From: Escherichia phage mEpX1
Sequence record: NC_019709.1
Length of the DNA stretch: 41,567 nucleotides
Strand: one strand, 5' to 3'
The notes beneath the pieces are model-generated. The model did not search any database. It had not been told where the DNA came from and saw nothing but the letters and a program-made list of their open reading frames with translations. Below are positions 36,389 through 37,950 of this stretch, piece by piece (position 1 is the stretch's first letter; each line of letters starts with the position of its first letter). The translations under genes and the position numbers were made by a program.

Positions 36389-36573
36389 ACGCCACAATTC
36401 AAACGATACCAGAGCTTCTTATCCAGACACGAGGCAATCAGACCGAAGTGGCGAGGATGCTTTCCTGCGCAAGAGGAACAGTGCTCAAGTACAACCGAGA
36501 CAGCAAAGGTGAGCGTCACGTAATAGTTAACGGCGTCCTGATGGTCAAACAGGGCAAGAGGGGAAGACCATGA
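36385..36573 (+). CDS. ninH: NinH
   Basis: 62 aa; TIPELLIQTRGNQTEVARMLSCARGTVLKY resembles lambda NinH as recalled. Confidence 0.65.
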   Translation: MNATIQTIPELLIQTRGNQTEVARMLSCARGTVLKYNRDSKGERHVIVNGVLMVKQGKRGRP

Positions 36574-37193
36574 GACTCGAAAGCGTAGCTAAATTTCACT
36601 CGCCAAAAAGCCCGATGATGAGCGACTCACCACGGGCCACGGCTTCTGACTCTCTTTCCGGTACTGATGTGATGGCTGCTATGGGGATGGCGCAATCACA
36701 AGCCGGATTCGGAATGGCTGCATTCTGCGGTAAGCATGAACTCAGCCAGAACGACAAACAAAAGGCTATCAACTATCTGATGCAATTTGCACACAAGGTA
36801 TCGGGGAAATACCGTGGTGTGGCAAAGCTTGAAGGAAATACTAAGGCAAAGGTACTGCAAGTTCTCGCAACATTCGCTTATGCGGATTATTGCCGTAGTG
36901 CCGCGACGCCGGGTGCAAGATGCAGAGATTGCCACGGTACAGGTCGGGCGGTTGATATTGCCAAAACAGAGCAGTGGGGGAGAGTTGTTGAGAAAGAGTG
37001 TGGAAGATGCAAAGGCGTCGGTTATTCAAGGATGCCAGCAAGCGCCGCATATCGCGCTGTAACGATGCTAATCCCAAACCTTACTCAACCCACCTGGTCA
37101 CGCACTGTTAAGCCGCTGTATGACGCTCTGGTGGTGCAATGCCACAAGGAAGAGTCAATTGCAGACAACATTTTGAACGCGGTCACACGTTAG
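36570..37193 (+). CDS. Q: Late antiterminator Q
   Basis: 207 aa with zinc-finger-like CRDCHGTGR...CGRCKG; immediately upstream of the late promoter/terminator region and lysis genes. Confidence 0.8.
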   Translation: MRLESVAKFHSPKSPMMSDSPRATASDSLSGTDVMAAMGMAQSQAGFGMAAFCGKHELSQNDKQKAINYLMQFAHKVSGKYRGVAKLEGNTKAKVLQVLATFAYADYCRSAATPGARCRDCHGTGRAVDIAKTEQWGRVVEKECGRCKGVGYSRMPASAAYRAVTMLIPNLTQPTWSRTVKPLYDALVVQCHKEESIADNILNAVTR

Positions 37194-37299
37194 CAGCATG
37201 ATTGCCACGGATGGCAACATATTAACGGCATGATATTGACTTTTTGAATAAAGTTGGGTAAATTTGACATCAACGATGGATAAATGCACTCGTTAAATA

Positions 37300-37330
37300 A
37301 AGCCCTGAGTTAATAGCTCGGGGCTTTTTG
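37300..37330 (+). terminator. tR'-like terminator downstream of late promoter
   Basis: Stem agccctgag/ctcggggct plus ttttt within the Q-S intergenic region. Confidence 0.5.
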
Positions 37331-37626
37331 CGTTTTAAGCGCGGCCTTTCTGAAAGCACATCAAACCAAATACCAGACAGACAATACCATCACCTTATCC
37401 GCTGTGGCTACGGTGCGGTGTGCTTTGTATAAAAGAAAACTAGCTCAATGTCTGGCTTCGTGAAAGCGGGTGGCAGGAGGTTGCGCTAACAACCTCATGC
37501 CGTTTTGCCCGTGCATATCGGTCACGAACAAATCTGATTACTAAACACAGTAACCTGGATTTGTTCTATCAGTAATCGACCTTATTCCTAATTAAATAGA
37601 GCAAATCCCCTTATTGGGGGTAAGAC

Positions 37627-37950
37627 ATGAAGATGCCAGAAAAAAATGACCTGTTAGCCGCCATTCTCGCGGCAAAGGAACAAGGCATCGGGGCAATCCT
37701 TGCGTTTGCAATGGCGTACCTTCGCGGAAGATATAATGGCGGTGCGTTTACAAAAACAGTAATCGACGCAACGATGTGCGCCATTATCGCCTGGTTCATT
37801 CGTGACCTTCTCGACTTCGCCGGACTAAGTAGCAACCTCGCTTATATAACGAGCGTGTTCATCGGCTATATCGGTACTGACTCGATTGGTTCGCTTATCA
37901 AACGCTTCGCTGCTAAAAAAGCCGGAGTAGAAGATGGTGGAAATCAATAA
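37627..37950 (+). CDS. S: Holin (lambda S-like, class I, dual-start MKM)
   Basis: 107 aa; from memory nearly identical to lambda S ([37 protein letters not shown]...). Confidence 0.9.

Follow-up and report, generated by a model that had tools for sequence, protein, structure and literature searches.

Does the messenger RNA in front of a dual-start holin gene carry regulatory structure beyond the elements to which the control of its translation is usually assigned? Among holins and lysis clocks, lambda S is the textbook case, and its translational control is attributed to the sdi stem-loop, two Shine-Dalgarno sequences, and one intragenic hairpin. The control of the S107/S105 dual start by sdi and the intragenic stem-loop is said to have been worked out by Raab, Blasi, Chang, Young and co-workers. 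The question is raised by Escherichia phage mEpX1 (sequence record NC_019709.1), whose 41,567 nt were analyzed as a whole and are referred to below as the window. In an initial annotation, four short segments upstream of the holin gene were noticed in the order A-B-A'-B' and were read as two interleaved helices, mutually exclusive or pseudoknotted, which might affect the translation of holin or antiholin.

Position of the Repeats in the Late Transcript

In the window, a lambda-type Q gene (36570-37193, ORF list) is followed by a pR'-like promoter (37236-37264, promoter scan), the tR' hairpin (37299-37327), and a second terminator-like hairpin (37400-37420), both from the terminator scan. The holin gene S occupies 37627-37950 on the + strand (ORF list; annotation of mEpX1, PV340543, and of lambda), and R starts at 37934 (ORF list). 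S has a dual start, with Met1 at 37627 corresponding to the S107 antiholin and Met3 at 37633 to the S105 holin. The short pR'-tR' layout is the same as in P22 and unlike that of lambda. Since the repeats lie between tR' and S, they are inside a leader which reaches the lysis genes only on Q-antiterminated late transcripts. This leader of about 170 nt (37456-37626) stands directly 5' of the dual-start holin and is non-coding, so the setting proposed in the initial annotation was correct. Within S itself, a perfect 9-bp inverted repeat is found at 37733-37741 and 37779-37787.

No ORF of at least 30 aa was present on the + strand of 37440-37626 in the ORF list. A coding explanation was rejected because the small ORFs of single phages are not conserved across leader types in the alignments, and a 35-codon frame of P22 which ends in the sdi arm is one of these. 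The promoter and terminator scans gave no site within 37456-37626. Tandem terminators were reportedly described in the lambda late leader by Luk and Szybalski in 1983. A search of Rfam at permissive E-values returned no relevant family in the leader, its sole match there, snoU85, being noise at 13.8 bits against a gathering threshold of 41; an isrJ-like match (28 bits against 37) is located over tR'. No annotation covers the leader in the lambda or P22 records or among the 40 E. coli matches listed. In the open-access papers searched, neither the A/B repeats nor a leader element is described.

Relatives and Distribution of the Leader

Related leaders were retrieved by BLAST against phage records, by a protein-anchored scan with one genome per species, and by two pattern scans of IMG/VR. 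Of the 91 distinct full-length leaders obtained in this way, 87 were aligned. They belong to four types, namely lambda, P22, HK633/Kluyvera/Citrobacter, and L071/L073/L187, and the P22-type leader is about 70% identical to that of the window. The leader module was found in prophages of 1204 of the 5426 complete E. coli genomes (22%). It sits behind different Q genes and sometimes behind tRNA genes; tRNA-Asn and tRNA-Thr stand between Q and the leader in Salmonella phage S107 (74-229) and in the E. coli 30EVA2 prophage (174-329).

Downstream of the leader stands one or the other of two unrelated holins, both with a dual start and an sdi-like hairpin. In PS119, SEN22, S107, and more than 80 IMG/VR contigs, the sdi loop is the point at which a lambda-type leader passes into an unrelated class II holin of 67-68 aa, whose start is likewise dual (MYRMDK...) and which has an sdi-like hairpin of its own (CCCCTCAATGAAGGGG). 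IMG/VR retrieval anchored on this holin added little diversity, the 80 loci obtained being near-identical. More distant S-like holins (81-83% and 58% aa identity; Intestinirhabdus, Citrobacter, Apirhabdus, Photorhabdus) are preceded by unrelated leaders without the layout of three A boxes described below, and these leaders are therefore unusable as a deep covariation test. Lambda S-region DNA was also met in dozens of "genomes" of unrelated taxa (Cohnella, Pedobacter, Shewanella, Bradyrhizobium, and others), where it represents contamination by sequencing control DNA; some of these contigs carry TTTTGGAATTTT adaptor-like runs, and all such contigs were discarded from the set of relatives.

A Nested Hairpin and the Fate of the Interleaved Helices

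Box A (GAACAAATC, 37526-37534) and its inverted copy (GATTTGTTC, 37558-37566) were recovered exactly as first noticed, with 9 of 9 positions complementary. Segments B (GATTACT, 37536-37542) and B' (AGTAATC, 37571-37577), both on the + strand, match at 7 of 7 positions, but the 8-mer tgattact originally given for B is complementary over 7 nt only. The order A-B-A'-B' also holds, and the segments lie 50-101 nt 5' of the S107 ATG (37627). Perfect inverted repeats with loops of up to 40 nt were counted in the whole window and compared with dinucleotide shuffles, giving 12 against 5.5 ± 1.7 for arms of at least 9 nt, and 117 against 84 ± 10 for arms of at least 7 nt. Repeats of 7 nt thus occur at background frequency and B-B' is unremarkable, while against chance the A-A' repeat on its own is only suggestive.

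In the minimum-energy folds, UUACU of segment B (37538-37542) pairs with AGUAA at 37549-37553 (AGTAA in the + strand DNA). This apical stem is nested inside A:A', so that one ordinary extended hairpin is formed, which we call SL-A (about 37526-37566). Its 5' arm is box A, and its 3' arm is box A' (GGATTTGTTC plus TAT, 37557-37569, + strand), which also serves as the 5' arm of the helix A':A'' described below. B' repeats the apical 3' arm in direct orientation (CAGTAA), and its complementarity to B came about by chance or is specific to a lineage. The initial annotation included neither the nested partner of B, nor the direct repeat, nor a third copy of A, termed A''.

SL-A has about 16-17 base pairs interrupted by internal loops. 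Its 49 nt (37522-37570) fold at -14.2 kcal/mol with z = -4.75, and none of 200 shuffles was equally stable. The apical stem is present in every leader type with differing sequences (TTAC/GTAA, GTTAC/GTAAC, TTACG/CGTAA, CGTCTG/CAGACG). L071-type leaders carry a 35-nt insert, with a palindrome of its own, in place of the interior of SL-A, and yet A, A', and A'' are retained. In the P22 and HK633 types, a T8->C change in A is absorbed in the predicted folds by a register shift with a bulged A. The best-supported interpretation of A and A' is that the two pair as the basal stem of a hairpin which is conserved within a modular and structured leader of the late mRNA. As an intrinsic terminator SL-A was rejected, its stem being A/U-rich and followed by UAUCAGU, and the terminator scan finding only the hairpins at 37299-37327 and 37400-37420.

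The helix B:B' behaves differently in the relatives, with no double-sided changes and with 5 of its 7 pairs unpaired in essentially all of the approximately 18-20 leaders not of the lambda type; B and B' are not complementary in P22-, HK633-, or L071-type leaders. Among lambda-type leaders, at least five different uncompensated variants occur, in B' (AGTAACC in several lineages, AGCAATC, AGAAATC, and AGTAATA) and in B (GTTTACT). The polymorphism of B', at 0.57 minor alleles per site, is at the level of unconstrained leader positions. When the 81 nt singled out in the initial annotation were folded, the minimum-energy structure placed B in the nested apical stem and contained no interleaved helix; the same use of B was found in every predicted fold. 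Furthermore, a pseudoknot of A:A' and B:B' would have a loop 1 of 0 nt, because A ends at 37534 and B starts at 37535/37536, and a loop 3 of 4 nt (37567-37570) crossing a 9-bp stem. In an H-type geometry, loops of 0 and 4 nt are too short here and sterically implausible. The existence of both complementarities in the window and in lambda-type leaders speaks for interleaved helices, whether as a pseudoknot or as a two-state switch. On the other hand, the loss of B-B' in all other leader types, its uncompensated variants, the background frequency of such repeats, the nested use of B, and the loop lengths make this model highly improbable. B-B' was rejected as a functional helix; it is a chance match and has no part in the mechanism proposed below.

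Conservation of the A Boxes

Conservation, the lack of which would have counted against the initial annotation by its own terms, was found in the homologous Q-S regions, and it is concentrated in the A boxes. Box A' (GGATTTGTTC) was unchanged in all 17 distinct leaders found without motif constraint, and 164 of the 166 homologous leaders whose retrieval placed no constraint on A' also carry it unaltered, the two variants being at terminal bases. The 7-nt core of A (GAACAAA) is kept in all four leader types, with variants that are either A->G, which is compatible with G.U pairing, or T8->C, and the A'' pattern GA[A/G]CA[A/G]ATCC is likewise kept in all four. The boxes are islands of identity within leaders of the lambda, P22, HK633/Kluyvera/Citrobacter, and L071 types which are only about 70% identical overall.

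In 82 distinct lambda-type leaders, the boxes have 0.08-0.15 minor alleles per site against 0.49 at other leader positions, the lowest polymorphism of all leader classes being that of A'; such apparent conservation is inflated by shared ancestry and recent recombination, and A' or a part of A was prescribed by two of the patterns used for retrieval. Polymorphic sites number 4 of 35 in the boxes and 23 of 63 elsewhere (one-sided Fisher p = 0.006), or 3 of 22 (p = 0.04) after the exclusion of A', which was partly fixed by retrieval. The spectrum of substitutions also differs, as A and A'' together show eight transitions to one transversion compared with 44 to 78 in the other leader columns (p = 0.003). 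Six of these eight transitions are A->G opposite a U of A', by which a G.U pair is kept on the + strand only. As evidence of pairing, the transition bias is not decisive, because about seven of nine possible transitions on the purine-rich A strand are compatible with pairing by chance; the near-absence of transversions in A and A'' is harder to dismiss.

Both A:A' (97.2% of cells paired) and A':A'' (97.9%) are kept in all four leader types. Double-sided changes in A:A' number zero because A' is invariant, and the shuffle control was uninformative for the covariation of this helix. In A':A'' there is one compensatory UA<->AU pair, located in the helix extension and present in seven leaders, together with three one-sided U.G changes. 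Of the checks proposed in the initial annotation, RNA folding gave a stable hairpin, and covariation proved minimal for the A boxes and absent for B-B'. The A-box motif is clustered, three of its six matches in the whole window lying inside 82 nt.

Upstream Parts of the Leader

The leader begins with a long-range helix, P0, formed by TTCGTGA (37457-37463) and TCACGAA (37522-37528), both on the + strand and complementary at 7 of 7 positions. The 3' arm shares GAA with box A. P0 is paired in 99% of cells in the 87 leaders and is chosen by RNAalifold. It encloses hairpin H1 (37472-37501, + strand; arms GGCAGGAGGTTG and CAACCTCATGCC, loop CGCTAA), the upstream part of the conserved leader. H1 covaries strongly, with double-sided changes in 6 of 12 pairs, and in the L071 type its stem sequence is wholly different with the pairing preserved; one pair, 37476/37497, is mismatched in 59 of the 87 leaders, including that of the window. 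H1 is probably no terminator, since the U run downstream of it (GTTTTG) is not conserved. Its loop CGCTAA is seen in both orientations in the relatives (TTAGCG, TTGACG, TTGGCG), as if the hairpin loop had been inverted. The loop sequence GCTAACA (37485-37491) is moreover complementary to S codons 9-11 (TGTTAGC, 37652-37658), just 5' of the intragenic stem-loop, a match that may be due to chance. In lambda, one of these pairs presumably becomes a U.G wobble.

The small RNA P22E of P22 is stated to end 48 nt before gene 13 (PMC13397905), which would place its 3' end at SL-A. By exact mapping, its 3' end lies 179 nt before gene 13, in the loop of the hairpin CCCAGAACTATGGCTGGG at the 5' edge of the leader, and a reading of P22E as the A-box hairpin was rejected. 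P22E lies between tR' and the conserved leader, at P22 sequence 392-492 and at about 37348-37447 of the window. The position of this end suggests a processing site at the 5' edge of the leader. Next to this edge, at 37431-37456, AAAAGAAAA followed by a G+C hairpin (CCAGC...GCTGG) has the form of an intrinsic terminator on the minus strand, which is clearer in Sf101 and P22 and degenerate in the window (CTAGC...GTCTGG).

A Third Copy of the A Box Adjoins sdi

Box A'' (ATAGAGCAAATCC, 37596-37608, + strand) is complementary to A' (37557-37569) at 12 of 13 positions, or at 13 of 13 if one U.G pair is counted. Its last 3 nt are part of the 5' arm of sdi. The sdi stem-loop itself, TCCCCTTATTGGGGG at 37606-37620 on the + strand (arms TCCCC and GGGGG, loop TTATT), is present, forms in predicted folds, and corresponds to the lambda element which sequesters the Shine-Dalgarno sequence of the S107 start. 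In lambda, sdi spans nt -21 to -7 (bioRxiv 10.1101/2025.05.14.654169). The segments first noticed (37526-37577) are outside sdi, 29-80 nt upstream of it, and only A'' overlaps it. In P22 (CCTCAC/GTGAGG) and PS119, the sdi hairpin is replaced in a compensatory manner.

Mutually exclusive helices that share a strand are therefore present, as the initial annotation had supposed, and they are kept in the relatives, with A' able to pair with either A or A''; the competitor of A:A', however, is A':A'' and not B-B'. A'' is the one credible alternative partner of A'. For 14 diverse leaders, RNAalifold predicted P0 around H1, followed by A':A'' and a shortened sdi, whereas single-sequence folds mostly favor SL-A together with the full sdi. 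In constrained ensembles, the energy gap between the state with A:A' and that with A':A'' is 0-4 kcal/mol for 10 of 11 leader versions, and which of the two is lower depends on the type; the exception is L071, with a difference of 8.4 kcal/mol. The window and lambda favor SL-A by 3.6 kcal/mol, P22, PS119, and L121 have both states within about 0.5 kcal/mol, and the Citrobacter, L071, and L187 versions favor A':A''. To some extent these near-equal energies follow automatically from A and A'' being copies of a single motif. When A':A'' was forced, the predicted probability that the Met1 Shine-Dalgarno sequence is unpaired rose, in 8 of the 11 versions, from 0.00-0.04 to 0.15-0.31. In the lambda type, including the window, the model gives A:A' a probability of 0.99, so the alternative state may be rare there. 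In summary, the predicted helices form a chain in which neighbors compete, P0 and SL-A for GAA, SL-A and A':A'' for A', and A':A'' and sdi for UCC. The segment between A' and A'' is G-poor and predicted to be unpaired.

Natural Deletions

Phage mEp235 (PV340540), a viable, K-12-propagated member of the same collection, has a 71-nt deletion corresponding to 37511-37581 of the window (at 360-376 of its retrieved sequence). The deletion removes A, B, A', and B' and keeps H1, A'', and sdi. The 3' arm of sdi in mEp235 is GGGGC in place of GGGGG, which may be a compensating change. In the E. coli 30EVA2 prophage, a 22-nt deletion between CAGTA direct repeats removes A' (about 490-500 of the retrieved sequence). 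In the E. coli Tig228 prophage, the leader is replaced upstream of the position equivalent to 37574 (about 400 of its sequence), and a divergent DUF551 gene stands in the place of Q. Since mEp235 is viable without SL-A, the hairpin is not essential for plaque formation. This dispensability is compatible with a modulator and equally with a lack of function.

Proposed Mechanism and Alternative Explanations

The analysis establishes that the repeats exist, that the hairpin is stable, that the three boxes are conserved in sequence, and that A'' overlaps sdi. We tentatively hypothesize that the leader has two states which tune the access of ribosomes to the dual start. Both the occurrence of the states in vivo and their effect on translation are inferred, and the proposal as a whole is possible rather than probable. 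In the first state, SL-A would form together with the full sdi, and the Met1 Shine-Dalgarno sequence would be closed. In the second, A'' would take A' away from A and, because it shares its last 3 nt with the 5' arm of sdi, A':A'' would be accompanied by a frayed sdi and a partly open Met1 Shine-Dalgarno sequence. The equilibrium could then tune either the frequency of starts at Met1 relative to Met3 or the total amount of S, and by this choice or amount the timing of lysis. The leader element would be a non-essential modulator acting through sdi. A broader version of this proposal, in which A, A', and A'' constitute an RNA switch common to lambda-, P22-, and HK633-type phages, setting the antiholin:holin choice or the holin yield through sdi for two unrelated dual-start holins and responding to some input, is doubtful. 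Candidate inputs would be the rate of co-transcriptional folding, temperature, a host RNA-binding protein, or upstream processing.

The two-state leader has to be weighed against the possibility that the region has no specific function at all. It would then be a mosaic junction between the late-regulation and lysis modules, similar among phages through recent common descent and frequent homologous recombination, and the repeats would be leftovers of an old local duplication or hairpin which a non-coding leader tolerates. Breakpoints are indeed present on both sides, upstream of about 37456, where lambda differs from the layout of the window and P22 and where S107 has its tRNA genes, and downstream at the sdi loop, where the class of holin switches. 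Most copies of the leader are moreover 95-99% identical, the covariation of the A boxes is minimal, and a viable phage has lost SL-A by natural deletion. However, conservation is uneven, as the A boxes are invariant islands in leaders that have diverged by about 30% and are several-fold less polymorphic than their neighbors. The L071 type has exchanged the interior of the hairpin and retained all three boxes, and the substitution spectrum of the boxes is unlike that of the rest of the leader. We regard the absence of function as possible to about the same degree as the two-state leader, without holding it to be probable.

It is rather unlikely, although still plausible, that SL-A, P0, and H1 constitute an element of mRNA stability or processing which is independent of sdi and of the dual start, either as 5'-proximal protecting hairpins after an upstream cut or as a site for RNase III/E. 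The stable and conserved SL-A and the strongly covarying H1 would suit such a role, as would the use of one leader for unrelated holins and the G-poor, predicted unpaired interval between A' and A''. The hairpin loop in which P22E (PMC13397905) ends by our mapping coincides with the 5' edge of the leader and points in the same direction. On the other hand, a stability or processing element leaves the conserved third copy of A abutting sdi unexplained, and the approximately 16-17 interrupted base pairs of SL-A are short for a classical RNase III site. Such a site has about two helical turns of (interrupted) duplex. The three A boxes, in direct, inverted, and direct orientation, could also be sites at which a DNA-binding protein of the host or of a phage attaches to the DNA. 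A 9-10-bp motif present three times inside 82 bp and not over-represented elsewhere in the window, and conservation at the level of sequence instead of covariation, would suit such sites. Nevertheless, no common phage-encoded partner is evident, given that the Q types in front of the leader and the lysis genes found with it differ, and in 68 of the 87 leaders A'' differs from A by an A->G change that keeps RNA pairing (U.G) and makes the DNA sites non-identical. To our knowledge, the A-box motif matches no known binding consensus. We consider a role as DNA sites very unlikely.

Comparison with Known Systems and Significance

The closest known system is lambda sdi, which is found on the same mRNA and strand and acts on the same target gene as a cis-acting RNA hairpin upstream of the dual start, and whose 5' arm is overlapped by A'' by 3 nt. 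The initiation region of lambda S has been described as four elements from nt -21 to +47 (bioRxiv 10.1101/2025.05.14.654169), whereas SL-A and the A boxes lie about 20-100 nt upstream, outside this region. SL-A also differs in being deletable in a viable phage, and a role of SL-A in initiation is only a candidate one. The overlapping exclusive helices (P0/A:A', A:A'/A':A'', and A':A''/sdi), which end at a hairpin over the ribosome-binding site, and the close predicted energies of two states resemble attenuator-type leaders with 1:2, 2:3, and 3:4 pairings and RNA switches. Unlike these, the mEpX1 leader lacks a terminator, a conserved leader peptide, and proof by covariation, and it has no known ligand or trigger. 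A likeness to the stabilizer hairpins and processing sites in the 5'-UTRs of polycistronic mRNAs may be seen in the stable, conserved hairpins at the start of a gene block and in an upstream RNA fragment, P22E, which ends at the 5' edge of the leader. Judged by its sequence, the A-box leader appears to be a cis-acting mRNA leader structure adjoining sdi, which is unannotated and has no Rfam family.

If the leader has no effect, the interleaved repeats could be dismissed and the region would be regarded as a conserved mosaic junction. A conserved upstream hairpin together with a third repeat copy extending over sdi would, on the other hand, add a testable element to the model of lambda S control. 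The leader is carried by prophages of about one fifth of the sequenced E. coli genomes and is also present in the lambda lysis cassettes of biotechnology. If the three-box switch proves true, it would mean that an undescribed layer of lysis-timing control exists in the best-studied phage lysis system.
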